Source: Nitrospiraceae bacterium
GTDB taxonomy: Bacteria; Nitrospirota; Thermodesulfovibrionia; UBA6902
Assembly: GCA_003599025.1 (NCBI GenBank)
Contig: QZIL01000084.1
Span: 4,285 to 68,284 of the forward strand
DNA: 64,000 bases
Direction of reading: 5' to 3'
Each line of letters starts with the position of its first letter. The stretch's first letter is position 1. The position numbers were made by a program, and so were the translations under genes. This document shows positions 3,550-63,168 of the stretch, piece after piece. The notes under the pieces are model-generated. The model was not told the DNA's origin. It did not search any database and saw nothing but the letters and a program-made list of their open reading frames with translations.

Positions 3550-6500
3550 TTGATGATACGAAGCAGATACAGAGGGGTATCCATATCAATTGTAATTTAT
3601 AAACCGTTAATCACAATATTCGCATTGCTTCTGGCATTTATTGAGGCAACAGCGATTGACTCCCCTCATTATGACCTTAACAGAATAGGGTGCGATTCCT
3701 GCCATTTTGTGCGTGGAAGTGAACCATCGCTTTTACCGCCCTGGACATCACATGTGCCCCAGGACATTGATGATACACAATACAATACACTTTGCTGGAG
3801 TTGTCATAATGATATTGAGGCGCCTTATGTTCGGACTCATTCCAGCCTTAATACAGACAACGGGTACGGGGACTGGACAGTAGAGTGCAGGGTATGCCAT
3901 AACCCGCATTATCAGAAACAGTTCAGGACATATGGAAGCGCGAGCTATGTGTATTCAGGGGCATCAACAGGTTTGACTGCAAGCACAATAACAAAGACCG
4001 GAGCAGGGTGGGCGCTTAATGCATATAAGGGATTAGTGGTTGTACCGAATTTATTGCAGGTTAATTACAATTATAAAATTCTAAGCAATACATCCGATAC
4101 ACTGACTGTTCAGGGGCCGCTCAATTTAAGCAAGGCAGCAGTCGGCAATACCTTTGCAATTGTGTATGGCAAACTTGTCACTGATACAGCTAATCTGAGC
4201 CAAATAGCAACAACTCCTGCTAAGAGCGGCAGCAAGCCTGTCAGGTTTTTTAATTCAACCGGGGCCAATTCATTTGCGGACGGCAATGGCGTATACGATG
4301 GAATCTGTGAGGTCTGCCATACGCAGACTTTTTATCACAGGAATAATCCTTCTGGAAATCATTCACATAATAATGGGGTGAAATGCACTGTATGTCATAC
4401 CCATTCGGAAGGGTTCAAGGGAACGGGTTGCGATGTTTGTCACGGATACCCGCCGGTCAATGCAACAAGCGGGGGTCCTGCCGGATTAGCGGACTATAAT
4501 GGTTCCACCGGCTCTGCTACAGCCGGGGCACATGCACTGCATGTAAATACAATAGGTTATTCCTGCAATGAATGTCATTTAAACAGCGCGGGTTCAGGTG
4601 CAACTCATATCAGCGGCCTTATGATAACAATGGGTTTCTCTCTCGCGGGAGGCACTTACCCGGGAGGCATGTATGACGGACAGACGACTGCGAATTACGA
4701 CAGTAGCGAGCCAGATACTGTTGTGTCAAAAACAGGGACAATGACATGTACAAGCATCTACTGCCACAGTACAGGGCAGTCAATAACTGATAAAGATGAT
4801 TCTACACCGAGCTATGCATCCCCTGTCTGGGATGACCCTGTAAGCGGGGCATGCGGTACTTGCCACAATGTCAGCGAGGCATCAGGGCTAAACAGCGGGA
4901 GCCATGCAGAACATCTTGGAGGCTCAGGAGTAAGCGGTTGTGGAGACTGCCATGCTGGTGCTGCTGATGATGCTTCGTCATATAACTCATCAAATCATGT
5001 CAACGCCTCTATAAACGTAGACAATGCTTACACAGCAGGTGGAGCGCCCGGGAACGGATACGGTACATGTTCCACGGCAAGCTGTCATGACGATGGGACA
5101 GGTAATCTCGTTGTAACTCCTGTCTGGGGTACTGATGTTGCCAGCTGTACGGCATGTCATGCCGCAGTGCCGTCTACAGGAAGCCATCAAAAACATGTTG
5201 TAACCACCAGTTATAAAAAAGCAGATTGCGACAGCTGCCATGACGGTGCAGAGGAAAGCCTCATGCCTCCTGAGCAGCATCTTGACGGGAATATTGACGT
5301 ATATGACTCCGCATCAGGAGATCTCGGATATCCCGAAAACAAGTCGCCGGGTACTGCCTATGCAGCATGTTCAACAGCATACTGTCACAGCACAGGACAA
5401 TCGACTGCCAGCGGTAATTCATCAACGCCTGCCTACTCAACAGTAACATGGGGTGGTTCTGCCGGATGCGGGACATGTCATGGTGTAACAGAGGAGACAG
5501 GATTGATCTCAGGCAGTCATGCGGCCCATCTCGGGTCTGCGGGAGTGGCCGGCTGTAGTGACTGTCATACAGGAGCGGCCAATGATGCGTCATCATACAA
5601 TTCGATTGAACATATAAACAGATTCATAGATGTAGCCAATGCTTATTCGGCAGATGGTGCGCCGGGCAATGGATATGGGACATGTGCCGTAGCCTCCTGT
5701 CACGAAGACGGGACCGGTTCGATGGTAACAACTCCTGTATGGGGGAGTGTAACAGAATGTTCGGCATGTCATGCGGCAGCACCGTCAACAGGCAGTCATA
5801 CAAAACATCTTTTACAGAGCGGAGTTGCATGTAGTGACTGTCATGACGCGGCAGTGCAGGGAACAACTGCTCCAACACAGCATCTTGACGGCAATATAGA
5901 TGTTTATAATTCAACACCGGGTGACCTCGGCTATCCTCAGGACAAGGCAAAAGGCAGCGCATATTCAACCTGCTCAAACATATCCTGTCATGGTGGTACA
6001 AGTGCAACATGGGGCGGGACTGCATGTCTTGACTGTCACAGCATCTCACAGGGAAGCCGGGCAGCCATAACATCTCAGTTCAACGCGAATTCCCATCATA
6101 TTCAGGGGGCTGTTACAAACGAAAAATGTTACCAGTGCCACTGGGAGGCAAACATTGACGGGAGTATCAACAGCACTCATCACGGAGGATCAGGGGCATC
6201 CGGATCTGCCGTGGACCTCGTGATATACGGTGCCGGGGCAAGACCTTCGATATATACCTCAGGGACTACGGCAGTCCAGTACATGGCTAGCGGGACGAGG
6301 ACAGAGATACAGAGAATAAACAGCCATTGCCTTGGTTGTCACAGTGACCAGAACAATTCAACTACGCCTTTTGGGGACGGGAAGACGCCGAGACAGTACG
6401 CATGGGACGGCAGCAGTGTGGAGGCCCGATACTCCCAGACAGGGACGACTCCGTGGGGTAAATACAGCAGCGCCACATATCCGAACGTGACACCCAAGGA

Positions 6501-9500
6501 CAAGCGTACCAAGGCCTTTTCTGCCCACGGCAATGCAGTGAACAACGAAGGGGGCTGGGACCTGAACGAAACCTGGCCCAACACTAGGAGCGGTGCAGTT
6601 AATGTGGCCTGTTTCGACTGCCATAACTCTCACGGCTCAAGCGTAAGTGGAACGACTGCATCATACATAAGCGCCACGACCAGCGGCGGGATTCTGAAAG
6701 ACACTTCTGCAGGCAAAGGGGGATATAACGTTGATTACAGACCTGCGGCAGGAGGTACTGATGAAAACAGGAACATCCGTAATGCCGGCGCAAGTCTATG
6801 CTTTGACTGTCACCTTACGGCTGACGGAAGTGCTGCCGGAATCCCCTGGGGCTATCAGACAACTTTTGGTTCGACTCAGGCGGTCATCGGCTACTTTGAT
6901 TCACCTTACCTTTCTCCAGGCAGTTCAGGAATGCAGCAGCGTTACCCGTATAAGGCGCTGTTGCAAAACAAAGGCGGCCATTTCAGTGCCTCATCGCCGC
7001 TATCCAGTACACCGATGGGCACTATCAACGGGCTATGCACACCATGTCATGACCCGCATGGGGTCAGCCCCACTGCTGTCGGAATCTGTTCGAACACGGC
7101 ATATGTCACAAAAACAACCTGTCAGTCCGGCGGCGGGGTCTGGACAGTTACTCCCCAGTACGGAGTACCGATGCTAAAGGGCACCTGGATGACGTCACCG
7201 TATAAAGAGGATGCTGCACCTGCTTACAACACCTTCGGCACAGTGCGTGACAGTTCATATCCGACAGGACACGACGGGACGCCGAGAGAAGGTGTTCCAT
7301 ACCATATAGACCAGAACACCTTTGGTGCGAACATAAGGGCAACGGTAACCGGCATAACTCAGACAGCCTCCCAGTTTGCAGGATTGTGTCTGAACTGCCA
7401 TCCAAAAAACAGCCTTACGGACGGGACCAATGGCGGCACATGGAAGAGTGTTGACCGCATTCATGAGTCTGTAAGGGGATGGGGTGGCAATGTACGGCAT
7501 AACTATACCTGCGCAAAGTGCCATGTTCCCCATAACGGCTCATCATTGCCACGCCTCATGATAACCAACTGCCTCAATAGCAGGCATAAAGGGAGAGTCG
7601 GCAATAATACCTCTGCTGTGCTCTCAGGCAGCGGCAGTTGTGATGACTACAACTGCTATGGTGAGGCCCGGACCATCGGCTTTGGATGGTGGGAAGAGGC
7701 TTATGCCTTTGCATCCGGCGGCGGGCAGTTCCCCGGAAGCTGGAGCGGGTATTATCCCGGGAGTTACGGTGTGACATGCCATGAGAACAAGGAAGCTGAC
7801 CAGAGCTGGAATAATGTTACGCCCTGGACTAATAGCACTCCTTCTATAACGTCCGGCCCCAGTTCAACCGGGCAGTTGGTGCTTATGCACATGGATGAAG
7901 CGTCATGGAACGGGACTCCGGGCGAGGTCAGTGACAGTTCGGGAAGAAACAACAATGGTACTGCATACAGTGGCGCAAATACAGTAACCGGCGGGAGCAG
8001 CGGCAGGGCAGGCAGCTTTAACGGTACCAGTAACTCTGTTGTAATAAATTATTCACCACCTGTGGACAGTTTCACGATTGAAGCGTGGATAAAGCCGACT
8101 GCGACCCACCAGGTTGATTCTGAATCTGTCACGGGCACAGGCGGTACGTCGGGGCAAAGATATTTATTCTGGCCAGACCATAAAGGTGCAGAAGGAGGAG
8201 CAGGCATATCAGCGGGCACCAACGGTATTTCTGTTTATGAGCACGGCAGCGGCTACATGCCTGCAATGGCGGTATACAACGGTGCTATCAGTACGAGCCA
8301 GTGGACCCATATAGCTGTGGTTTACTCTGATAAGAAGCCGAGTATTTATGTAAACGGCGTACTTGTCCGCACAGGTCTCAAGTCTGCCAAAACACATGTG
8401 TATGCGCCTACTGTAATTGGCGGGGGTTCATATGGTTATTTCCCCGGGACTGTAGACGAGGTCTCTATTTATCAGGGGGCCTTGAGTGCTGATGAGATAA
8501 TCCTGCACTATCAGCAGAACAGTGCTGTTGTCTGTAACAGCACGGAAAAGAATATTGTATGGACTACTGATTTCGATTCCACGTCTTATGTTGACTTCGG
8601 ATTAACAGCGGGTTACGGATCAACAGCCGGGAATAGCTCCTCAGTAAAGAACCACAGTATTGTGCTGTCAGGCCTTTCAGCGCCAGCGACATATCACTAT
8701 AGAGTGCGTTCTTCCAATTCAAATGGAGAAACAGTATCCAGTGACTATACTTTTGACACATATACCTGTCCGCCTGCAACGCCGACCCTTACCTCACCGA
8801 CGGCGACATCAGTCAGCACTACCACCGTGACACTTGGGGCCAACGTAACTGCTTCCGGCGGCCCGGCCATTACAGCACGGGGCACAGTATGGGGTATCTC
8901 AGCGAACCCGACCGGTAATGCAGCGGCAGAAGGCGGGACCTCAACAGGGGTCTATACTCATTCAAGAACAGGGCTGCCTTCCGGTACACGCATTTACTAT
9001 CGAGGCTACGCAACAAACAGCGCGGGTACGAGGTATTCCCCTGACGGCAGTTTCTATACTGAGCCTTTGACACAGGCAGCCGGGGTGAATTTTACATCAG
9101 TATGGTCATCAGGCATGACAGTGAAATGGACTCGCGGGACCGGCGATGGGGTCCTGGTATTGATGCGGCAGGGTTCGGCAGTGGTCACTGATCCAACTGA
9201 TGGTATATATACAGCATATTCGGGAAATGCCTCCCTTGGAAGCGGGACAGACATAGGAGGTGCATATGTGATTTACAAAGGGACAGGCACCAGCGTGACG
9301 GTCAATGGTCTGGCTGCCGGTACAACATATAACGTAGCGGTCTATGAATATAAGGGTACGCTTAACACTGCTGCATATGCACAGGGCACTAATTACAGAT
9401 CCCCGCCGGCAACAGGCAGTCAGGCAACCAGCACAGGTAGCTCAGGGGGAACTGTTGTGTTTCCGATTTCTCACATGGTGAATTGTTATAGCGGGACTTT

Positions 9501-9942
9501 TGCAGCAGATGCCGGAAATATTATATGGGCCGGCCCTTATCTGGACGAATATGATGAATGTGATGTCGACCGTACATTTTTGATGTTCGACACTTCATCG
9601 CTGGGGGCCGGAGCAACAATTACATCAGCGAGACTTTATCTGGATTTCCAGACAAGGGACTACCTGTCTCAGAACGCAGTTACTAATATCCATGAATCAT
9701 CGTGGGTGTACCCTCCTAATTCAGGTACCTGCAGCAATGTGGGGACTTATCTGGCCAATAACACGGTGTTGGTTAATCAGGCCTTCGGACTTACCACCTT
9801 TAACATAAACCCTGCATCTATTAACAAAACCGGGAATACCGGATTTGCTGTCAAGGGCGCTGATGAAACCATATGTGACAATGCAGACCCTGGTTATAAC
9901 AGGGCAACTTCATATCTGGAAGTGGATTACACCTCAAACTAA
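3550..9942 (+). CDS. Giant extracellular multihaem c-type cytochrome (about 28 haem motifs) fused to LamG-like, FN3-like and DNRLRE-like C-terminal domains
   Basis: 2130-aa ORF with an N-terminal hydrophobic signal/anchor (PLITIFALLLAFIEATA). By eye I count 23 CxxCH and 5 Cx4CH (CTSIYCH, CSTASCH, CSTAYCH, CAVASCH, CSNISCH) in the first ~1400 aa. The Cx4CH...CxxCH pairing resembles the Geobacter-type multihaem repeat. About 7870-8520 is LamG/ConA-like (SFNGTSNSVVI...FTIEAWIKP...WTHIAVVY...IYVNGVLV...VDEVSIYQGALSADEI). About 8550-9420 holds three FN3-like modules. About 9450-9939 resembles a DNRLRE-type domain (RTFLMFDTSSLGAGATITSARLYLDF). Confidence 0.9.
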   Translation: MMIRSRYRGVSISIVIYKPLITIFALLLAFIEATAIDSPHYDLNRIGCDSCHFVRGSEPSLLPPWTSHVPQDIDDTQYNTLCWSCHNDIEAPYVRTHSSLNTDNGYGDWTVECRVCHNPHYQKQFRTYGSASYVYSGASTGLTASTITKTGAGWALNAYKGLVVVPNLLQVNYNYKILSNTSDTLTVQGPLNLSKAAVGNTFAIVYGKLVTDTANLSQIATTPAKSGSKPVRFFNSTGANSFADGNGVYDGICEVCHTQTFYHRNNPSGNHSHNNGVKCTVCHTHSEGFKGTGCDVCHGYPPVNATSGGPAGLADYNGSTGSATAGAHALHVNTIGYSCNECHLNSAGSGATHISGLMITMGFSLAGGTYPGGMYDGQTTANYDSSEPDTVVSKTGTMTCTSIYCHSTGQSITDKDDSTPSYASPVWDDPVSGACGTCHNVSEASGLNSGSHAEHLGGSGVSGCGDCHAGAADDASSYNSSNHVNASINVDNAYTAGGAPGNGYGTCSTASCHDDGTGNLVVTPVWGTDVASCTACHAAVPSTGSHQKHVVTTSYKKADCDSCHDGAEESLMPPEQHLDGNIDVYDSASGDLGYPENKSPGTAYAACSTAYCHSTGQSTASGNSSTPAYSTVTWGGSAGCGTCHGVTEETGLISGSHAAHLGSAGVAGCSDCHTGAANDASSYNSIEHINRFIDVANAYSADGAPGNGYGTCAVASCHEDGTGSMVTTPVWGSVTECSACHAAAPSTGSHTKHLLQSGVACSDCHDAAVQGTTAPTQHLDGNIDVYNSTPGDLGYPQDKAKGSAYSTCSNISCHGGTSATWGGTACLDCHSISQGSRAAITSQFNANSHHIQGAVTNEKCYQCHWEANIDGSINSTHHGGSGASGSAVDLVIYGAGARPSIYTSGTTAVQYMASGTRTEIQRINSHCLGCHSDQNNSTTPFGDGKTPRQYAWDGSSVEARYSQTGTTPWGKYSSATYPNVTPKDKRTKAFSAHGNAVNNEGGWDLNETWPNTRSGAVNVACFDCHNSHGSSVSGTTASYISATTSGGILKDTSAGKGGYNVDYRPAAGGTDENRNIRNAGASLCFDCHLTADGSAAGIPWGYQTTFGSTQAVIGYFDSPYLSPGSSGMQQRYPYKALLQNKGGHFSASSPLSSTPMGTINGLCTPCHDPHGVSPTAVGICSNTAYVTKTTCQSGGGVWTVTPQYGVPMLKGTWMTSPYKEDAAPAYNTFGTVRDSSYPTGHDGTPREGVPYHIDQNTFGANIRATVTGITQTASQFAGLCLNCHPKNSLTDGTNGGTWKSVDRIHESVRGWGGNVRHNYTCAKCHVPHNGSSLPRLMITNCLNSRHKGRVGNNTSAVLSGSGSCDDYNCYGEARTIGFGWWEEAYAFASGGGQFPGSWSGYYPGSYGVTCHENKEADQSWNNVTPWTNSTPSITSGPSSTGQLVLMHMDEASWNGTPGEVSDSSGRNNNGTAYSGANTVTGGSSGRAGSFNGTSNSVVINYSPPVDSFTIEAWIKPTATHQVDSESVTGTGGTSGQRYLFWPDHKGAEGGAGISAGTNGISVYEHGSGYMPAMAVYNGAISTSQWTHIAVVYSDKKPSIYVNGVLVRTGLKSAKTHVYAPTVIGGGSYGYFPGTVDEVSIYQGALSADEIILHYQQNSAVVCNSTEKNIVWTTDFDSTSYVDFGLTAGYGSTAGNSSSVKNHSIVLSGLSAPATYHYRVRSSNSNGETVSSDYTFDTYTCPPATPTLTSPTATSVSTTTVTLGANVTASGGPAITARGTVWGISANPTGNAAAEGGTSTGVYTHSRTGLPSGTRIYYRGYATNSAGTRYSPDGSFYTEPLTQAAGVNFTSVWSSGMTVKWTRGTGDGVLVLMRQGSAVVTDPTDGIYTAYSGNASLGSGTDIGGAYVIYKGTGTSVTVNGLAAGTTYNVAVYEYKGTLNTAAYAQGTNYRSPPATGSQATSTGSSGGTVVFPISHMVNCYSGTFAADAGNIIWAGPYLDEYDECDVDRTFLMFDTSSLGAGATITSARLYLDFQTRDYLSQNAVTNIHESSWVYPPNSGTCSNVGTYLANNTVLVNQAFGLTTFNINPASINKTGNTGFAVKGADETICDNADPGYNRATSYLEVDYTSN
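4747..5970 (+). repeat. Internal in-frame tandem duplication (units 4747..5367 and 5368..5970) of a six-haem module within the cytochrome gene
   Basis: The protein segments C(T/S)..YCHSTGQS...CGTCH...SGSHA.HLG..GV.GC.DCH.GAA.DASSYNS..H.N..I.V.NAY.A.GAPGNGYGTC..ASCH.DGTG....TPVWG.....C.ACHAA.PSTGSH.KH......C..CHD.A......P.QHLDGNIDVY.S..GDLGYP..K..G.AY..C align over about 200 aa. A third unit starts at 5971 (CSNISCH) and then diverges. Confidence 0.85.
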
Positions 9943-20519: not shown

Positions 20520-22124
20520 ATGGAAGTTATGCTAAATAGAAAAAAATATAAATTAACATGTACTGGATTGCTATTATTATTTGCCCTGATAGCAGTTCTA
20601 ATAGTAGTTATGCAAAGTTTGGTATTTGCTGTTTCTTCTATCAATATTCCTGAAATACCACCATTTCCAGCAATAATTTCAACTGGTAACACTTACCATG
20701 TTTCTAAAGATATTGGCAGTAATTTAAATGATGGTTCTTCTGAGCATCCGTGGAAAACACTCCAATATGGGGTTGACCAGGTCAAAGCAGGAGACACGCT
20801 TATTGTTCATGCTACACCTGCTGGGTATAATGAATGGGTGTACATTTCAAACTCCGGTACAGAAAGTAATTGGATTACAATAAAAGGTCGTGATGGGGAA
20901 GATGGACAAAAAGTTATTATAACGGATTACGAACTAAGACTTAAAAGTTCTGCTGCATACATTTCGGTTGAGAATATAAATATTCATGGTAAATATTGGT
21001 CAACACTCTTTCTGAATTCCAATACACATCACTTGGCATTTAATAACATTGAAATTGATTGTCAGAATAGCAGTGAAAATTATACAGGAGTAGTGGTTCA
21101 TGAGGGCGTTAATAATGTCTGGTTCAGGGATATGTATATACATAATTGCGGTTATGAAAAGCTTAGTCCGACGGATGCAAGTGGAGTGTACATGATGCGT
21201 CACCTTAGCACAGATCCTTTAATTACGGATATTGTTTTTATGAATGTTACGGTGAGAGATAATAATGGAGATGGCATTAGCAGCACGGCAGTTGATTCTG
21301 TATACTTTGATAGATGTAATGTAACTAATAATACTGGAGATGGATATGATATATATGCCAGGACAAGGGCGGTTTTTAAAGATATTATTTCTGCCGAGAA
21401 TGGAGAGGGATTACGTTATCAGGGAGTGGGAATCAAGGCATGGTCTAAAGAAACATGGCTCATTAATGCCCTCATATATAAGAATTACTATGATGGAGTA
21501 TTATTTCAGTCTGTTGAGGATAATAGCAAGTTCTTTGTTTTAAACTCAACATTTGTTGACGATGTTTTTTATAATAGAAGTGGTTATGGAACAAACCAAG
21601 TTTATCTTTACAACAATGTGTTCTATCCCCTTAACGCTTACCCGCCCACTGTCATATTTGAGGATATATCTAAACAGACACTTGCAGGAGAGGATAATAA
21701 TTATTACTTCTCAGATAATAATGCTGTTGCCTTTAAATACAAAGAGGGGGGCAAGACTAGAAATTATACGTTCAAAGAAATGGGGGATGGAACATGGTAT
21801 AAATCAACAGGTTATGGGTCAAAAAATATCGGAATCATAGGGTCGCTTGATCACCTTCCAGATCCAGGTTTTACTGACACATATAATAATCTATTTTCTT
21901 TAAAGAAAGGCAGTCTTGCTATAGATGCGGGGATCGATCTGAGTCTAATATTTGATAATTATGATAAAACAAGAATATGTAATCGTAATCCCGATATAGG
22001 TGCAATTGAGTATTGTTCTTGTCCAAATGAATCTATACCAGCAAATTCTGGACAACTTTGTAGTGATCTAGTCCTAATAGACCGTATGGCTCCTGTTGCC
22101 CCAAAGAGGCTAAGAATTCTGTAG
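20520..22124 (+). CDS. Secreted right-handed parallel beta-helix repeat protein (pectate-lyase fold)
   Basis: Signal/anchor LLLLFALIAVLIVV, then GSSEHPWKTLQYGVDQVKAGDTLIVH, then repeated N..F....I.N.G / GDGI turns. The C-terminus has LKKGSLAIDAG...NPDIGAIEY. The gene and its flanks are visibly AT-rich. Confidence 0.75.
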   Translation: MEVMLNRKKYKLTCTGLLLLFALIAVLIVVMQSLVFAVSSINIPEIPPFPAIISTGNTYHVSKDIGSNLNDGSSEHPWKTLQYGVDQVKAGDTLIVHATPAGYNEWVYISNSGTESNWITIKGRDGEDGQKVIITDYELRLKSSAAYISVENINIHGKYWSTLFLNSNTHHLAFNNIEIDCQNSSENYTGVVVHEGVNNVWFRDMYIHNCGYEKLSPTDASGVYMMRHLSTDPLITDIVFMNVTVRDNNGDGISSTAVDSVYFDRCNVTNNTGDGYDIYARTRAVFKDIISAENGEGLRYQGVGIKAWSKETWLINALIYKNYYDGVLFQSVEDNSKFFVLNSTFVDDVFYNRSGYGTNQVYLYNNVFYPLNAYPPTVIFEDISKQTLAGEDNNYYFSDNNAVAFKYKEGGKTRNYTFKEMGDGTWYKSTGYGSKNIGIIGSLDHLPDPGFTDTYNNLFSLKKGSLAIDAGIDLSLIFDNYDKTRICNRNPDIGAIEYCSCPNESIPANSGQLCSDLVLIDRMAPVAPKRLRIL

Positions 22125-23682: not shown

Positions 23683-24432
23683 ATGAAACGTTTCATGCTT
23701 ACGATCAGTATTGTTGCACTATGTATTTTTGCCATGTCTTCATGGGCGGAGGCCCAGTTCAATTACTCGGGAGGAATATCGATTGCTGGTGGCTCTGCAC
23801 TGGGGACCGGAAACTGGAATGACAATCCCATGGGAAAGACTAACATGAGCTGGGATGTATCTTGGGATGGAACTGGACTCGTTCATTATTCATACACTTT
23901 TGAAGTTGCCCACCATGATATAAGTCATCTTTCACTCGAGCTTTCTGATTCCTTTTCTGCTACTGATATCACTAACGTGACTATAAATGGAAATGCATCC
24001 TCAGATTACTCAATTGGTAATTTTACAGGAGGTACGGCCCCATATAATACTATGCCCGGAGATATGTATGGAGTTAAATTTGATATGCCTTCCAATACTC
24101 TTCTGGCTACAATTGCATTTGACAGCACCCGTATGCCGACATGGGGTGATATCTATGCTAGGTGCGGGGTAAGAGTAGAACATACACTGCCCAAGACTGA
24201 TCCAGCATGGAAACAGTGGAACTCTGCGTGGAATGCAGGATTCTCAAACGGGGAGACATCAGGTACAGGGAATGATCCAATATTGGCTGCAGGCAATGGT
24301 CCTTATCTGAACCATGTTCTTGTCCCTGATTCGGTTGCAGTAGTGCCAGAGCCTGTAAGCTCTGCCCTGTTTGTCATTGGTGCGACAATGTTTGCCGGCA
24401 GGAAGTATATAAAAAGAAGAAGACTAAATTAA
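23683..24432 (+). CDS. PEP-CTERM sorting-domain secreted protein
   Basis: Signal peptide. The C-terminus VPEPVSSALFVIGATMFAGRKYIKRRR is PEP + TM helix + basic tail, the exosortase sorting signal. Confidence 0.85.
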   Translation: MKRFMLTISIVALCIFAMSSWAEAQFNYSGGISIAGGSALGTGNWNDNPMGKTNMSWDVSWDGTGLVHYSYTFEVAHHDISHLSLELSDSFSATDITNVTINGNASSDYSIGNFTGGTAPYNTMPGDMYGVKFDMPSNTLLATIAFDSTRMPTWGDIYARCGVRVEHTLPKTDPAWKQWNSAWNAGFSNGETSGTGNDPILAAGNGPYLNHVLVPDSVAVVPEPVSSALFVIGATMFAGRKYIKRRRLN

Positions 24433-36501: not shown

Positions 36502-36903
36502 ATGGAACCTGTAATTGTATGGTATCTGAGAATGAGCGTTGTCTATTTTGTTGCGGGTGTTGCAACTGGATTTGGCATGCTGTTATGGCCGAGCGAATCT
36601 GGATATTATTTGCCCGTTCATGTGCACTTGAATCTTCTGGGTTTTATGTCGATGATGATTTACGGTGTGGGTTATCATATATTGCCCAAGTTCAGCGGTC
36701 GCCATATCTACAGCCCACAAATTATGAAGGTCCAGTTCTGGTTTTCAAATGCCGGACTGATCGGCATGGCGGTCAGCTGGCCATTTCATATGGGCGGAGG
36801 TGTTCCAATTGCTGAAACCACACTGGTTCTATTTTCAGCACTTTCACTAATAGCGATAATATTATTTGCCATTAACATACTGAAAACTGTCAAGTCAGTT
36901 TAA
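36502..36903 (+). CDS. Four-TM membrane protein resembling a fragment of haem-copper oxidase subunit I
   Basis: HVHLNLLGFMSMMIYGVGYHILPKFSGRHIYSPQIMKVQFWFSNAGLIGM parallels the H.H..L.GW.....G..Y.L.P...GR.LYS..L...HFW....G helices of CcoN/NorB-type subunits. At 133 aa it is far too short to be an oxidase. Confidence 0.55.
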   Translation: MEPVIVWYLRMSVVYFVAGVATGFGMLLWPSESGYYLPVHVHLNLLGFMSMMIYGVGYHILPKFSGRHIYSPQIMKVQFWFSNAGLIGMAVSWPFHMGGGVPIAETTLVLFSALSLIAIILFAINILKTVKSV

Positions 36904-46433: not shown

Positions 46434-46718
46434 ATGAGAGGATTGATTTTTATAATACTAATCTCGTTTTTTGCCGGATGTTCTTCCGGAGACGTGTGGG
46501 AAGGGCTTGTTTACCCTGACAGAGGCAATCTTTTAATACACATAAGTCCGGGACAGTATGAGAGTCTGGAACAGTGTGAAGCTGCCTGCCTCGAAATACT
46601 GAAGTCAAAAAATGCCCTTAAAAATGGCTATTTTGAGTGCGGCAAAAACTGTAAATCCGGGCTGGCCTCCTTTAATGGAGATTGCCAGGAAACTGTAAGG
46701 GGCAATTACTACAAATAG
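46434..46718 (+). CDS. Hypothetical lipoprotein (94 aa)
   Basis: Lipobox LISFFAGCSS and four further Cys. I recognise no family. Confidence 0.5.
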   Translation: MRGLIFIILISFFAGCSSGDVWEGLVYPDRGNLLIHISPGQYESLEQCEAACLEILKSKNALKNGYFECGKNCKSGLASFNGDCQETVRGNYYK

Positions 46719-47037: not shown

Positions 47038-47781
47038 ATGATGAAAAAGCTCAGTCCGAATGAGGTCCATGATCAGGTACGCCGGAGGTACGGTGAGATA
47101 GCATACTCAATAAAGGACAGGTTCAAATATCCTGCCGGCAGGGAAGGCCTTTTAAAACTTGGTTATGATTTGACTGCTGCCCAAGTAATTCATGAGGGTA
47201 TTGTTGAATCCTTCTGCGGGGTAGGTAATCCTTTCAGTCTGGGGCCTGTTCGGCCGGAAGATACTGTTCTGGATGTGGGATGTGGAGGGGGATTTGATGT
47301 TGTCATGGCAAGTCATTTTACGGGTCCTGAAGGGAGGGTATACGGGATAGATCTGGTCCCTGCAATGGTGGAAAAGGCAAAACGAAATATAATGAGTATG
47401 GAATTATCAAACTGTGAAATAAGAGTTGCAGGCTCAGAGGCAATCCCCTTTGATGACAATACATTTGATGTTGTTATTTCAAATGGGGCGATTTACCTGT
47501 CACCTTTAAAAGAAAAATCTCTGAATGAGGTATGCAGGGTCCTTAAACCGGGAGGCTGTTTCCAGTTTGCTGACGTTGTCCTTAATGACGATATTCCGGA
47601 AAAGGTCGCGGCCTGCTTTGATGGCTGGGCCGGTTGAATCGGAGATGCGGTCCTGGTCAGGGACCTGATAGAGTTAATGAGGAATGCAGGCTTTGAAGAG
47701 GTCGAATTTGCCGGGATGACCGGTATATTGACCTCAAAGTTCACGGCTGGCGCACATTTCCGTGCACGGAAGAGAAAATAA
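47038..47781 (+). CDS. ArsM-like SAM-dependent methyltransferase, predicted selenoprotein (TGA 47635-47637 read as Sec; 247 aa)
   Basis: SAM motif VLDVGCGGGFD. ArsM-like FCGVGNP and LKPGGCFQFADVV. The ORF stops at TGA after DGWAG, but the same frame continues for 47 sense codons (IGDAVLVRDLIELMRNAGFEEVEF...AHFRARKRK) to TAA at 47779-47781. The TGA aligns with the Cys of HGECLSGA in the arsM paralogue at 62107. A SECIS-like hairpin follows. Confidence 0.7.
47649..47665 (+). other. SECIS-like hairpin downstream of the in-frame UGA
   Basis: GGUCCU[GGUC]AGGGACC forms a 6-bp stem with one bulged G and an apical GGUC loop. The stem starts 11 nt after the UGA. The loop starts 20 nt after the U of UGA. 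Confidence 0.5.
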
Positions 47782-48989: not shown

Positions 48990-49589
48990 TTATACGGCGA
49001 ACCCTGCCTTCTTTACATCCTCAATTGTATCTATATCTCTCAACTTTTTTGTATACCCAGCAGTATACCCGGATTTACCAGCCTGCTCAAGACTTTCTCT
49101 GAGCGTCTGTTCCGATGACCATGTCACGTTTTCAAACACTTCCCTGATCAGTTTACTCATACCTACTAAATAGTACCCGCCGTCTTCAGCAGGGCCGAAT
49201 ACAAGATCGTTGTCAGACAGCAGATCAAAGGCATTAAGTACAATCGATGCTGACAGGCCAGGAATGTCCGCGCCGACCAGCACTGCTTTCCTGTGCCCCT
49301 TTCCGAAAATCACTTCAAATGAGTGAGACATATTTGCGCCAAGGTCATCCGGTGAAAGAGGGACCAGCCCGGTCAGGAAGCGGGAAAAATATATTTTTGC
49401 TGTCCCAGGCATGTAGGCAATATATGTATCAACCCCGGGGATTTGCCTGAGGTTGAGAATGGTTTGCTCAAGCAGGTGCGTATACAGTCTGAGAATGTCG
49501 TCATCTCTCATGGATCCGTTCAACCGTGTCTTGACGGCCCCGGCCTCGGGATACTTGGCGATAATGATCAATGCATTACTGTTCTTCAC
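48990..49589 (-). CDS. DUF2064 nucleotidyltransferase-fold protein (TIGR04282-type transferase, arsenosugar/rSAM-selenodomain-associated)
   Basis: ALIIIAKYPEAGAVKTRL......LGANM..SF.......KAVLVGADIPGL......AF..L...DLVFGPAEDGGYYLVG......F..V.WSS.. Confidence 0.8.
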   Translation of the reverse strand: MKNSNALIIIAKYPEAGAVKTRLNGSMRDDDILRLYTHLLEQTILNLRQIPGVDTYIAYMPGTAKIYFSRFLTGLVPLSPDDLGANMSHSFEVIFGKGHRKAVLVGADIPGLSASIVLNAFDLLSDNDLVFGPAEDGGYYLVGMSKLIREVFENVTWSSEQTLRESLEQAGKSGYTAGYTKKLRDIDTIEDVKKAGFAV

Positions 49590-50272
49590 CTTACCTCTTT
49601 ATAATGTTTGATAAGCCTCTCAGGAGATATTTTAAAAAACGTGTAAGAAAAAGCGATAGTCCAGTCTCTCAGAGTAGTGTAAAGCATACCTTCTTTCAGC
49701 CAGCGTCTCGGTGATGCCTTAATCGGCGGTTTTATGAAAACGATCTTTCCTTCATGTTTCAGTCTCGTGGATATCTCAATATCCTCCATTAATGGAATTT
49801 CAGCGAAACCTCCGATATGATCGAAGACCTCCTTCCGGAGAAACATGCCCTGGTCACCGTATATGAGAGAAGTAAGCTGGGACCTTACATTTGCGACAGA
49901 CTCAATTAATCTGAAGCCGAGGCCGGGATGGTCGATACTGAGGGCAAATGCGCCTGCTGCCACATCCCTTTTTGTGAGCGTATCTCTTATAAGTGCATCC
50001 GCACTGTCAGGCAGTACGCAGTCAGCATGTAGAAAAAGGAGAATATCTCCTTCAGCTTTCTGCGCGCCGAAATTCATTACGCTTGCCCTTCCTGTTTTTG
50101 TCTCAAAAACTTTTGGGGTAAACTCACGGGCTATGGATACGGTCTCGTCACTGCTGCCGCCATCGACAATTATTAATTCTTCATTCTCTGATAAATGAAG
50201 ATGATCGAGTGTAATGCGGAGACTTCGAGCTTCATTCATAACGGGCATTACAATGCTTATCTTCTGTAACAT
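49586..50272 (-). CDS. Family-2 glycosyltransferase (TIGR04283-type, partner of DUF2064)
   Basis: ISIVMPVMNEA..L...L.......ELIIVDGGSSDETV.IA......GRA..MN.GA..A.GDILLFLHADC.LP. It overlaps the DUF2064 gene by 4 nt. Confidence 0.8.
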   Translation of the reverse strand: MLQKISIVMPVMNEARSLRITLDHLHLSENEELIIVDGGSSDETVSIAREFTPKVFETKTGRASVMNFGAQKAEGDILLFLHADCVLPDSADALIRDTLTKRDVAAGAFALSIDHPGLGFRLIESVANVRSQLTSLIYGDQGMFLRKEVFDHIGGFAEIPLMEDIEISTRLKHEGKIVFIKPPIKASPRRWLKEGMLYTTLRDWTIAFSYTFFKISPERLIKHYKEVR

Positions 50273-54286: not shown

Positions 54287-55186
54287 TCACTTCTTCTTCA
54301 CTGCATGCCCTCCGAACTCATTCCGCAGGGCCGCTATCGTTTTGGCGCTGAAAGACTCCTGCTGTCGCGAACCGAAGCGCTCAAGAAGAGAGAGTGTAAT
54401 TACAGGCGCCGGTACGTCCAGTTCAACGGCCTCGGCAACGGTCCAGCGGCCCTCGCCTGAGTCTTCGACATAACCGCGGATTGATTCCAGGCCGGGGTCT
54501 TTGCTGAAAGCGTTCTCAGCAAGTTCAAGCAGCCACGAGCGCACGACACTGCCGTGGTTCCACAGGCCGGCGATCTTGTGCAGGTCAAGATTGAACTCCT
54601 TTTTTGCGTGCATGATCTCAAACCCTTCGGCATAGGCCTGAAGCATCCCGTATTCGATCCCGTTATGGACCATTTTAACAAAATGCCCGGCTCCATTCGG
54701 TCCGACATGTGCATATCCGTTTTCAGGGGCGAGTGTCTTTAGCAGAGGCTCGACTTTAGTGAATACATCTTTGTCACCACCGATCATCATGCAATATCCG
54801 ATTTTCAGCCCCCAGATACCTCCGCTTGTGCCTATGTCAAGAAATGATATATTGCGCTTTTTCAGTTCCTGCGCTCTGCGTATGGAATCTTTGTAAAAGG
54901 AATTCCCACCGTCTATCAGGATGTCGCCTTCCTGCAGCATTCCAGCCAGGTCCATCAGGTTCTCCTCCGTGGCCTTTCCTGCAGGCACCATAAGCCATAC
55001 AATACGTGGTCTATCCAGCTTGTCCACAATGTCTTTAAGTGACGATGCTCCAACTGCACCCTTCTCTTCTGCCTTATTTACAGTCTCTGGTGTGCGGGCA
55101 TAAGCGATGACTGTATGGCCTCCATTTATCAGGCGCTGCACCATGTTCATGCCCATTTTTCCGAGACCGATTAAGCCGATTTTCAT
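54287..55186 (-). CDS. gnd: 6-phosphogluconate dehydrogenase, decarboxylating (short ~300-aa type)
   Basis: MKIGLIGLGKMG.NM..RL..GGH.V......GG.S.Y.D..RR...L....I.FLD.GTSGG..G...G...MIGG......GAGHFVKMVHNGIEYG. Confidence 0.9.
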   Translation of the reverse strand: MKIGLIGLGKMGMNMVQRLINGGHTVIAYARTPETVNKAEEKGAVGASSLKDIVDKLDRPRIVWLMVPAGKATEENLMDLAGMLQEGDILIDGGNSFYKDSIRRAQELKKRNISFLDIGTSGGIWGLKIGYCMMIGGDKDVFTKVEPLLKTLAPENGYAHVGPNGAGHFVKMVHNGIEYGMLQAYAEGFEIMHAKKEFNLDLHKIAGLWNHGSVVRSWLLELAENAFSKDPGLESIRGYVEDSGEGRWTVAEAVELDVPAPVITLSLLERFGSRQQESFSAKTIAALRNEFGGHAVKKK

Positions 55187-62106: not shown

Positions 62107-63168
62107 ATGAGCAGAGAATCAGAAATGACCGGGTCGTTGAAATCATATTACGGTAAGGTGATCCAGAGTGCGCTGGACCTTAAGACCAGCACATGCAAAT
62201 GCGACGACAGCACGTTGTCTCCATATATACGTGCAATAGAAAACAAGATCGATGATGAAATCCTTACAAAGGTCTATGGATGCGGTTCTCCCATACCTCC
62301 TGCAATTGAAGGGTGTGTGGTGCTGGACCTCGGATGCGGGGCCGGGAGGGATGTGTACATTGCTTCTCACCTTGCAGGCCCGGACGGGTTTGTGATCGGG
62401 ATCGATATGACACGTGAACAGATTGATGTGGCCCAAAGGCATCTTGATAAACAGATGGAGAGGTTCGGTTACAGGAAACCGAATGTTGAATTCAGGCATG
62501 CGACCATTGAGGACCTGAAAGAGGCAGGGATAGCCGACAAATCTGTTGATGTTGTTATTTCCAATTGCGTCATTAATCTATCTCTCTCCAAAGAAAAGGT
62601 GTTTTCCGAGATCTTCCGTATTCTCAAGACCGGGGGTGAACTTTTTTTCTCGGATGTATTTGCCGGAAGGAGGGTCCCTGATTATTTGAAGGACGATCCT
62701 GTCCTGCACGGGGAATGTCTGTCTGGGGCCATGTATACAGGGGATTTTGGAAGGATGTTAAGAGAGCTGGGATGTCCTGATTACCGCATTGTTTCAAATC
62801 GACGTATAACTATCGATAATCCGGAAATTGAGGCCAGAACAGGCAGGATTGATTTTTATTCCATGACTGTCAGGGCATTTAAACTTGGCTCCCTTGAGGA
62901 CAACCATGAGAATTACGGTCAGACGGCTGTCTATATGGGTACTATTCCTGAATGCCCTCATGCTTTTGAGCTTGACGAATATTACACCTTTAAAACAGGC
63001 AAACCTGTACCGGTCTGTGGCAATACAGCATCGATGCTTCGGGAAACACGTTTGTCAAGACATTTCAAGATAACAGGCGACAGGTCTGTTCACTACGGGC
63101 CGTTTGACTCTGTGCCCGCCTCTCCAGTGCTCGAAAGGCAGGGCAGGGACGGCGGCACTTGCTGTTGA
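62107..63168 (+). CDS. arsM: Arsenite S-adenosylmethionine methyltransferase
   Basis: LKTSTCKC, YGCGSPIP, VLDLGCGAGRD, VISNCVINLS, LKTGGELFFSDV and HGECLSGA match the four conserved ArsM Cys positions plus the SAM fold. Confidence 0.85.
   Translation: MSRESEMTGSLKSYYGKVIQSALDLKTSTCKCDDSTLSPYIRAIENKIDDEILTKVYGCGSPIPPAIEGCVVLDLGCGAGRDVYIASHLAGPDGFVIGIDMTREQIDVAQRHLDKQMERFGYRKPNVEFRHATIEDLKEAGIADKSVDVVISNCVINLSLSKEKVFSEIFRILKTGGELFFSDVFAGRRVPDYLKDDPVLHGECLSGAMYTGDFGRMLRELGCPDYRIVSNRRITIDNPEIEARTGRIDFYSMTVRAFKLGSLEDNHENYGQTAVYMGTIPECPHAFELDEYYTFKTGKPVPVCGNTASMLRETRLSRHFKITGDRSVHYGPFDSVPASPVLERQGRDGGTCC

Follow-up and report, generated by a model that had tools for sequence, protein, structure and literature searches.

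The stretch of DNA analysed here (the window: 64,000 nucleotides (nt) of contig QZIL01000084.1, from a Nitrospiraceae bacterium) carries at 47038-47781 a gene for an ArsM-like methyltransferase dependent on S-adenosylmethionine (SAM), the frame of which is interrupted by a TGA. It is concluded, with a probability of approximately 0.88, that this TGA at 47635-47637 is a selenocysteine (Sec) codon in a 247-residue ArsM-like enzyme; this figure covers the Sec reading and the protein family, and not the substrate. In the proposed mechanism, the hairpin at 47649-47665, with a G and a U in its apical loop, would recruit SelB carrying Sec-tRNA(Sec) during translation, Sec would be inserted at the UGA, and the ribosome would proceed to the TAA at 47779. 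The predicted product is a single-domain methyltransferase in which Sec200 takes the position of Cys224, an As(III)-binding residue of CmArsM. With less certainty, a soft trivalent metalloid or chalcogen substrate would be bound by Sec200, probably together with the invariant Cys60, and a methyl group would be moved from SAM.

The UGA column and the coding tail

The open reading frame (ORF) starts at ATG 47038, reaches ...FDGWAG and closes at the TGA, after which 47 further sense codons (IGDAVLVRDLIELMRNAGFEEVEFAGMTGILTSKFTAGAHFRARKRK) in the same frame lead to the TAA at 47779-47781. This arrangement had been described in an earlier reading of the window from its letters alone (the sequence-only reading), and it was recovered when the sequence was re-read. 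The tail begins with IGDAV and ends with RARKRK, residue 247 is the last of the protein, and the stop context is TAA TAG TAG. A consensus scan revealed no terminator-like site between the TGA and the TAA. Taken by itself, the window provides weak evidence for Sec. Given that neither its open frame nor its hairpin is exceptional, the case rests on the comparison with other sequences.

Orthologues were obtained by a scan of one genome per GTDB species, which gave 337 relatives of the query, and the best 80 loci were examined; the comparative counts of 81 genes refer to the window gene plus these 80 loci. The tblastn matches span residues 1 to about 247 in the 80 loci, which come from at least six phyla (Nitrospirota, Methylomirabilota, Planctomycetota, Desulfobacterota, Bacillota, Chloroflexota and others). 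Most of the loci belong to Thermodesulfovibrionia and other Nitrospirota, and the nearest relative is found in a metagenome-assembled genome (MAG) of Thermodesulfovibrionia, with 77% identity. Further loci are from Methylomirabilota, Candidatus Brocadia, Candidatus Uabimicrobium amorphum, Desulfobulbaceae, Desulfopila aestuarii, Bacillus benzoevorans, Anaerobacillus arseniciselenatis, Eisenbacteria, Rokubacteria and Ardenticatenaceae.

The codon aligned with the UGA of the window is TGA in 81/81 genes, with TAA, TAG or a sense codon in none of them, whereas the terminal stop past the tail varies (TGA in 33, TAA in 29 and TAG in 19). The possibility raised beforehand, that homologues truly end at ...WAG, is not borne out, given that 80/80 of the fetched orthologues keep the TGA and a conserved tail of 45-73 residues, with the consensus [IV]GGA[IV]PVRD...GF..VE..G.TG..TS.[FY]T.GALFRA.K. 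There are zero stops in 81 x 40 tail codons (3240), and the mean amino-acid identity of the tails to that of the window gene is 0.54. The diversity at the three codon positions is 0.33/0.27/0.62 in the tail and 0.36/0.25/0.63 in the 40 codons before the UGA, and past the true stop it is 0.75 at all three positions. In a protein search, about 100 of the top 120 homologues are 198-208 residues long and end at the UGA column, while about 10 "full-length" matches carry a W at the Sec column. These W-bearing homologues were considered as Cys forms and rejected; in P0056, which was checked at the DNA level, both W are TGA under a TGA=Trp code.

The alternation of Cys and Sec that was proposed as a check on the sequence-only reading was found in a search with a query covering the Sec column. 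Cys occupies this column in canonical ArsMs (MYAGCVSGA) and in a few members of the subfamily, namely the fragments P0123 (SNA..., LWAG-C-VSG) and P0124 (SNG..., SWAD-C-VSG). A near-orthologue of the Brocadia locus, P0121, has the codon TGC and an intact hairpin, and its gene is frameshifted in two independent samples; for this reason it was rejected as a clean Cys orthologue, and its TGC is taken here to be a recent change in a copy that may be decaying or variant. In this Brocadia-like variant (L082:445-1253 and L083:3-562, from two independent runs), a deletion of 1 nt in a GGGG run splits the gene.

The downstream hairpin and the decoding of the UGA

The hairpin starts 11 nt after the UGA and sits within the coding tail (codons A-V-L-V-R-D), and its GGUC starts 20 nt after the U of the UGA. 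Its conservation was studied in an alignment of the UGA plus 45 nt from the 81 genes, which is gap-free and contains 79 distinct sequences. Columns 15-20 of this alignment, equivalent to 47649-47654, pair with columns 26-31, equivalent to 47660-47665, with 98.9% of the cells paired and compensatory changes in four of the six pairs (for example, A-U in 46, G-C in 25 and G-U in 8 sequences at one pair, and C-G in 64 and U-A in 13 at another). The covariation score was reached by none of 500 shuffles, sliding the partner by 1-3 columns lowers the pairing to 19-69%, and RNAalifold, run independently, gives the identical helix. In the loop, every sequence has G at position 22, and at least 90% have U at position 23. 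The covariation runs across codons, given that Pro-CCN with Arg-CGG alternates with Ser-UCN with Gly-GGA, and therefore the protein and RNA constraints are met jointly.

The window copy has a U-G wobble as its closing pair, a loop of five nucleotides (GGUCA) and a folding energy of -9.9 kcal/mol. The position, the 11-nt spacing and the distance of GGUC from the UGA given by the sequence-only reading all stand, and the stem-loop of selenocysteine insertion sequence (SECIS) type that it had placed 3' of the UGA is kept among the orthologues, with a conserved loop G and U and with compensatory changes in the helix. Its drawing with a bulged G and a U-A pair does not stand, since the consensus consists of six continuous pairs. 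From this conservation and geometry, it is very likely that UGA 47635 is decoded as Sec by way of the downstream hairpin.

The flanking non-coding frames contain 1.57 stops per 40 codons, and from this density the chance of a 47-codon open stretch after a stop is approximately 0.16. Two observations weigh against the Sec reading. The hairpin of the window is thermodynamically unremarkable in its context (z = -0.39 for 45 nt and -2.29 for the 21-mer), and the minimum free energy fold of 66 nt favours another structure than the hairpin 47649-47665. None of selA, selB, selC and selD was found in the 64 kb of the window or in the 9 kb past its 3' end, the source being the unbinned JGI metagenome contig Ga0104756_1000136 of 88.9 kb.

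Rfam and tRNA scans of the window gave no matches, and a scan of the window for ORFs broken by one or two TGA gave no convincing further Sec gene. The frame at 54287-55186 on the minus strand was considered as a second Sec gene and rejected, given that it codes for a gnd-type dehydrogenase of full length that ends at an ordinary stop. A tRNA-Sec with the anticodon TCA is present in a Thermodesulfovibrionales MAG (L024:12686-12783, minus strand), 3.3 kb from the orthologue; its neighbours code for an MtrA-like methyltransferase and a GGDEF protein, and selA and selB do not adjoin it. A SelD-like tblastn match in L034 was not counted, being an ambiguous protein of the AIR-synthase family (HypE, SelD or ThiL) that scores below all cutoffs.

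If the TGA were a true stop, the gene would code for a 199-residue truncated methyltransferase or would be a pseudogene, and the downstream frame would be a relic. This is how gene callers and RefSeq annotate it, in entries of 197-198 residues, and a single open stretch of this length is not improbable by chance, as given above. A relic would decay, yet the tail is stop-free, with variation biased to the third position, in 81 lineages across phyla; moreover, the UGA column is always TGA in the face of mixed terminal stops, and the tail provides the last two beta-strands of the predicted fold. By these comparative data a true stop appears to be effectively refuted, and it is considered extremely improbable. 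That the UGA stands for one of the standard amino acids, be it Trp or Gly by an alternative code (tables 4 or 25) or Cys by near-cognate read-through, agrees with the W that some metagenome gene callers put at the Sec column (P0049, P0056 and P0122), but these calls stem from TGA on short contigs. In addition, 6 of the 29 annotated window genes end in TGA, one of them being gnd with a full-length match to its hidden Markov model, and therefore UGA is an ordinary stop in the source organism. The relatives are found in standard-code phyla, including cultured Bacillus, Anaerobacillus and Desulfopila, the conserved hairpin at its fixed 11-nt distance would have no role under a simple reassignment, and the residue at the Sec column in homologues is Cys, the usual counterpart of Sec. 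Such a reading is very unlikely. The one related contig with TGC at the UGA position (P0121, in L082 and L083) could suggest that the TGA arose from a Cys codon (TGC or TGT) through an error of sequencing or assembly, but the fact that the same TGA is present in 80 independent assemblies, complete isolate genomes included, leaves this with a negligible probability. Taken with the stop-free tails and the covariation of the hairpin, the 81/81 TGA places the observation far beyond chance, and the claim that the UGA is a Sec codon is upheld by the conserved column, the constrained tail and the covarying hairpin.

Protein fold, active site and substrate

The read-through product is matched in Pfam by Methyltransf_31 (E = 6e-29), Methyltransf_25 and Methyltransf_11. 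The top three matches in an NCBIfam scan are curated selenoprotein ArsM models, namely NF041537 (arsenite methyltransferase/AhpD domain selenoprotein, 259 bits vs a cutoff of 510), NF047649 (methyltransferase/UXPK-star double selenoprotein, 242 vs 460) and NF041536 (arsenite methyltransferase/DUF2284 domain selenoprotein, 236 vs 575). The generic arsenite methyltransferase model NF008823, scanned with Cys substituted for Sec, gives 185.1 bits vs a cutoff of 263. All four matches are limited to residues 8-246, and the scores are below the cutoffs because the window protein consists of the methyltransferase domain alone.

The closest solved structures by sequence are those of ArsM/AS3MT, 5EVJ (E = 4e-20), 4FR0 and 8XT7. 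An AlphaFold2 model of the window protein has a predicted local distance difference test (pLDDT) value of 74 and a predicted template modelling (pTM) score of 0.73, and the top matches in a fold search with this model are again ArsM/AS3MT (6CX6, 4FR0, 5EVJ and 8XT7), with query-normalised template modelling scores of 0.65-0.69 over about 230-238 of the 247 residues and about 26% identity. In the model, the tail past the UGA forms a helix (207-217) and two strands (219-231 and 236-245), with pLDDT of about 70-90. A 199-residue product would lack this helix and the last two strands and, therefore, would probably not be functional. Alignment and model together make it highly probable that the product is a SAM methyltransferase of the ArsM fold with Sec200 at the Cys224 ligand position.

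The columns of the active site were mapped by HMMER alignment to CmArsM, in the numbering of 4FR0/4KW7, and one locus that ends at a contig edge was left out of the scoring of these columns. The As(III) ligands of CmArsM are Cys72, Cys174 and Cys224 (PMC4211708), and in the literature Cys224 corresponds to Cys206 of human and Cys207 of mouse AS3MT. U200 of the window protein aligns with Cys224, so that the ligand position is kept as Sec, and with the Cys of the GECLSGA motif in the ArsM paralogue of the window; this agrees with the sequence-only reading, in which the TGA was placed on an As(III)-binding Cys by comparison with that paralogue. The Cys174 column, Cys in the SNCVINL motif of the paralogue, had been reported as Gly in the window gene, and it is indeed Gly150 here and Gly in 80/80 scorable orthologues. 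The fact that the Sec column is that of Cys224 and that the Cys174 column is Gly makes the earlier statement, that the enzyme is not a plain ArsM and that its substrate is open, a fair one. At the Cys72 column the window protein has V62 (FCGVGNP, vs FYGCGS in CmArsM), and this column is V or I in the family, with [FY]CG[VI]GNP in 79/79 loci matched by motif search; L063 has SCGVGNP. Cys60, the sole family-invariant Cys outside the SAM-binding motif, is on this alignment a candidate partner of Sec200. The N-terminal region of the window protein has no Cys, and there is no equivalent of Cys44 of CmArsM.

The substrate is less clear than the decoding. As(III) or methylarsenite (MAs(III)), bound by Sec200 with Cys60, is the leading candidate, with a chance that comes close to even. 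Among characterised proteins, ArsM/AS3MT are the nearest by sequence and by fold, NCBI curators call the nearest models arsenite methyltransferase, arsC and acr3 adjoin the gene in B. benzoevorans and acr3 in L044, and TIGR04282 or TIGR04283 genes recur near it. Against a function as ArsM, the window gene is outside any ars operon, its neighbourhood is mostly unconserved across the 80 loci, and the NF008823 score is under the curated cutoff. In addition, one published operational definition of ArsM asks for three or more of the four conserved cysteines (44, 72, 174 and 224 of CmArsM; PMC5552862), and only the 224 column is kept here, as Sec. Moreover, functional Cys orthologues are rare within the clade, the closest one being the frameshifted P0121. 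Given that the clade has no equivalents of Cys174 and Cys44, its chemistry may differ from that of canonical ArsM. The low NF008823 score and the shortage of conserved cysteines, together with the Gly in 80/80 orthologues at the Cys174 column, the V or I at the Cys72 column, the canonical Cys-type ArsM already present in the window and the few loci in which ars genes adjoin, are compatible with a selenoprotein in which Sec200 and Cys60 form a redox or ligand pair and the methyltransferase acts on something other than arsenic. Selenide or selenite, tellurite, thiols or selenols and organometals are examples of such substrates. A different soft metalloid or chalcogen of this kind is a realistic, tentative alternative, although nothing points positively to any specific one. 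It is rather unlikely that the single-domain clade with FCGVGNP, SNG and U is a distinct enzyme that is not an arsenite methyltransferase, with a site of one Sec plus one Cys for another substrate or reaction; if it were, it could act, for example, solely on arsenicals that already carry a methyl group, or on species of selenium or tellurium.

Gene neighbourhood, sister clade and known systems

The features located in the window, and the loci of the sister clade described below, are collected in the table.

Features of the window and loci with an N-terminal extension (positions are those of the whole stretch unless a locus is named)
Feature	Position	Strand	Basis or description
Predicted selenoprotein coding sequence	47038..47781	+	199 codons, UGA (Sec200), 47 codons, TAA; 247-residue ArsM-like class I SAM-dependent methyltransferase
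Cys60 codon, motif FCGVGNP	47215..47217	+	two residues upstream of the CmArsM Cys72 column (alignment to 4FR0/4KW7)
Gly150 codon (SNG, SNGAIYL)	47485..47487	+	at the CmArsM Cys174 column (HMMER alignment)
UGA codon (U200)	47635..47637	+	TGA in 81/81 orthologous genes; column mapping to CmArsM Cys224
Coding tail past the UGA, 47 residues	47638..47778	+	coding constraint among orthologues; helix and last two beta-strands in the model
SECIS-like hairpin, stem 47649-47654/47660-47665, apical loop 47655-47659 (GGUCA)	47649..47665	+	covariation, RNAalifold
Terminator-like GC hairpin followed by a T-run, 60 nt past the TAA	47841..47860	+	consensus scan only
TIGR04282 and TIGR04283 "arsenosugar biosynthesis glycosyltransferase" genes, convergent pair	48990..50272	-	both pass NCBIfam cutoffs
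Canonical Cys-type ArsM paralogue (SNCVINL, GECLSGA)	62107..63168	+	comparison sequence, 14.5 kb from the Sec gene
Loci with the N-terminal extension (1)	L017, L021, L022, L025, L029, L032, L033, L035-L039, L043, L045, L047, L048		e.g. L021:9956-9958
Loci with the N-terminal extension (2)	L050-L057, L060-L063, L065-L068, L070-L075, L077, L079, L080		further example L084:283-285

The gene is preceded by a sigma-54 response regulator and followed by a convergent c554-type cytochrome, then by TIGR04282/TIGR04283 and then by pentose-phosphate genes, which gives no operon-level clue to function. The TIGR04282/TIGR04283 pair is 1.2 kb from the Sec gene and is context outside the gene; the window and the 9 kb that follow it showed no ArsS radical-SAM gene. 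One or both of these families are found near the orthologue in six other loci (L001, L002, L004, L031, L015 and L052), of which L031 (both genes), L015 (TIGR04283 only) and L052 (TIGR04282 only) are not close relatives of the window. Gene neighbourhood, being mostly unconserved, was rejected as an indicator of function; of the extra clusters, the two largest consisted of antisense shadow ORFs of the Sec gene.

The exceptions in the neighbourhood point towards arsenic and selenium. In B. benzoevorans (L031), a LysR regulator of the "selenium metabolism-associated" type flanks the gene (301 bits vs a cutoff of 250), within a cluster (L031:7807-15401, NZ_JACHGK010000006) that comprises this regulator, a nucleoside-hydrolase-like gene, a thioredoxin-type ArsC, ACR3, an unassigned ORF of 335 residues, TIGR04282, TIGR04283 and an ATP-binding cassette (ABC) transporter. 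A LysR of the same type stands beside the orthologue in L053, with 285 bits, above the curated cutoff. ACR3 adjoins the orthologue in L044, and a Cys-type ArsM adjoins it in L037 and L046. The ArsM paralogue of the window is itself under the NF008823 cutoff (175 vs 263 bits) and ends in ...GGTCC, and a 70%-identical copy of it is found in L037, 1.7 kb from the Sec gene.

Elsewhere in the window, all on the plus strand, a 2130-residue ORF at 3550-9942 contains multihaem cytochrome c7/c3 motifs and a LamG domain, and just before it a 952-residue beta-helix/Calx-beta protein is encoded at 50-2908; these two products are probably large extracellular or redox proteins. Three ORFs have no Pfam or NCBIfam match (20520-22124, 534 residues; 23683-24432, 249 residues; 46434-46718, 94 residues), and the last of these, just upstream of the Sec gene, is common to three close relatives. 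A 133-residue ORF at 36502-36903, perhaps a remnant, has as its only match a fragment of haem-copper oxidase subunit I.

In approximately 45 of the 80 loci the orthologue is extended at its N-terminus by 40-70 residues, which include a second in-frame TGA in the motif u-[PA]-P-[SA]-G-G-[AT]-G-x-C-R, followed by a weaker consensus helix of 4 bp with a G-rich loop. The window gene and its closest relatives do not have this extension. No description of the N-terminal Sec was found in the accessible literature, and the sister clade may be an undescribed double-Sec form, in which the U-P-P-S-G-G-A-G-x-C motif could replace the missing N-terminal ArsM cysteines.

In RefSeq and UniProt the three isolate orthologues that were checked stop at the UGA, as "methyltransferase domain-containing protein" entries of 197-198 residues (WP_184525773.1, WP_084031565.1 and WP_151970430.1); these truncated products are from B. 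benzoevorans (L031), A. arseniciselenatis (L058) and Ca. Uabimicrobium amorphum (L009, NZ_AP019860). The gene and its orthologues are, in this way, called as 199-residue proteins, in which the catalytic Sec and the final two beta-strands of the predicted product are missing, and a curated single-domain model would correct the orthologue entries. The analysis would also add a Sec enzyme to the Thermodesulfovibrionia-like Nitrospirota and mark a clade with Sec in place of one arsenic-binding Cys and with the second Cys lost, which raises the question of whether selenium compensates for a lost thiol or alters the substrate specificity. The result is incremental and brings no new principle. The new points are modest, namely a single-domain clade under all curated cutoffs and RefSeq products that stop at the UGA.

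The minimal SECIS of E. coli fdhF type is an upper stem-loop 11 nt after the UGA, with a GGUC loop in which the G and the U contact SelB. The hairpin of the window family resembles it in the 11-nt spacer, in the short GC-rich helix and in the start of the apical loop with (G)GU, of which the G is invariant and the U nearly so. It differs in that the family consensus has no bulged U, the helix has only 6 bp and the lower stem is not conserved.

With canonical ArsM/AS3MT (CmArsM 4FR0, 4FSD and 6CX6; CrArsM 5EVJ; human 8XT7) the window protein shares the class I fold, the As-binding region and a ligand at the Cys224 position, predicted to be Sec instead of Cys. Unlike these enzymes, it has no Cys at the 44 and 174 columns, its Cys in the region of 72 is displaced by two residues, and the C-terminal domain of about 100 residues is absent.

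It is established that Sec-containing methyltransferases of ArsM type have been known since 2007, and the window gene is a further member; given the published UxxG ArsM selenoproteins and the NCBIfam models, selenoproteins of this kind are not new. The family arsM (PRK11873) was named as a selenoprotein family (PMC2398784), and Table 1 of a 2026 review (PMC13188914) lists the arsenite methyltransferase NF008823 (UxxG, one Sec, WP_011987699.1) as an "experimentally verified" selenoprotein, citing Fomenko et al. 2007 (Science 315:387). The same table lists as predicted the fused families NF041537, NF041536 and NF047649 of Haft & Tolstoy 2025 (mSystems). With the Fomenko-type selenoprotein the window protein has in common the methyltransferase domain and one predicted Sec at UxxG, in the Cys224 column, most orthologues reading U-[IV]-G-G and the window U-I-G-D. 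Its NF008823 score is below the cutoff, and in its Gly at the Cys174 column and its V at the Cys72 column it may differ from the published representative. The three fused families provide the best-scoring models, with a methyltransferase domain that carries Sec at the matching UxxG column, and therefore the window protein appears to belong to the same methyltransferase clade, with the same Sec position. In contrast to the window protein, these families include a further domain (AhpD or DUF2284) or a UXPK Sec at the C-terminus, with two or three Sec in total, whereas the window protein covers model positions 11 to about 249 and ends 47 residues past its single Sec.

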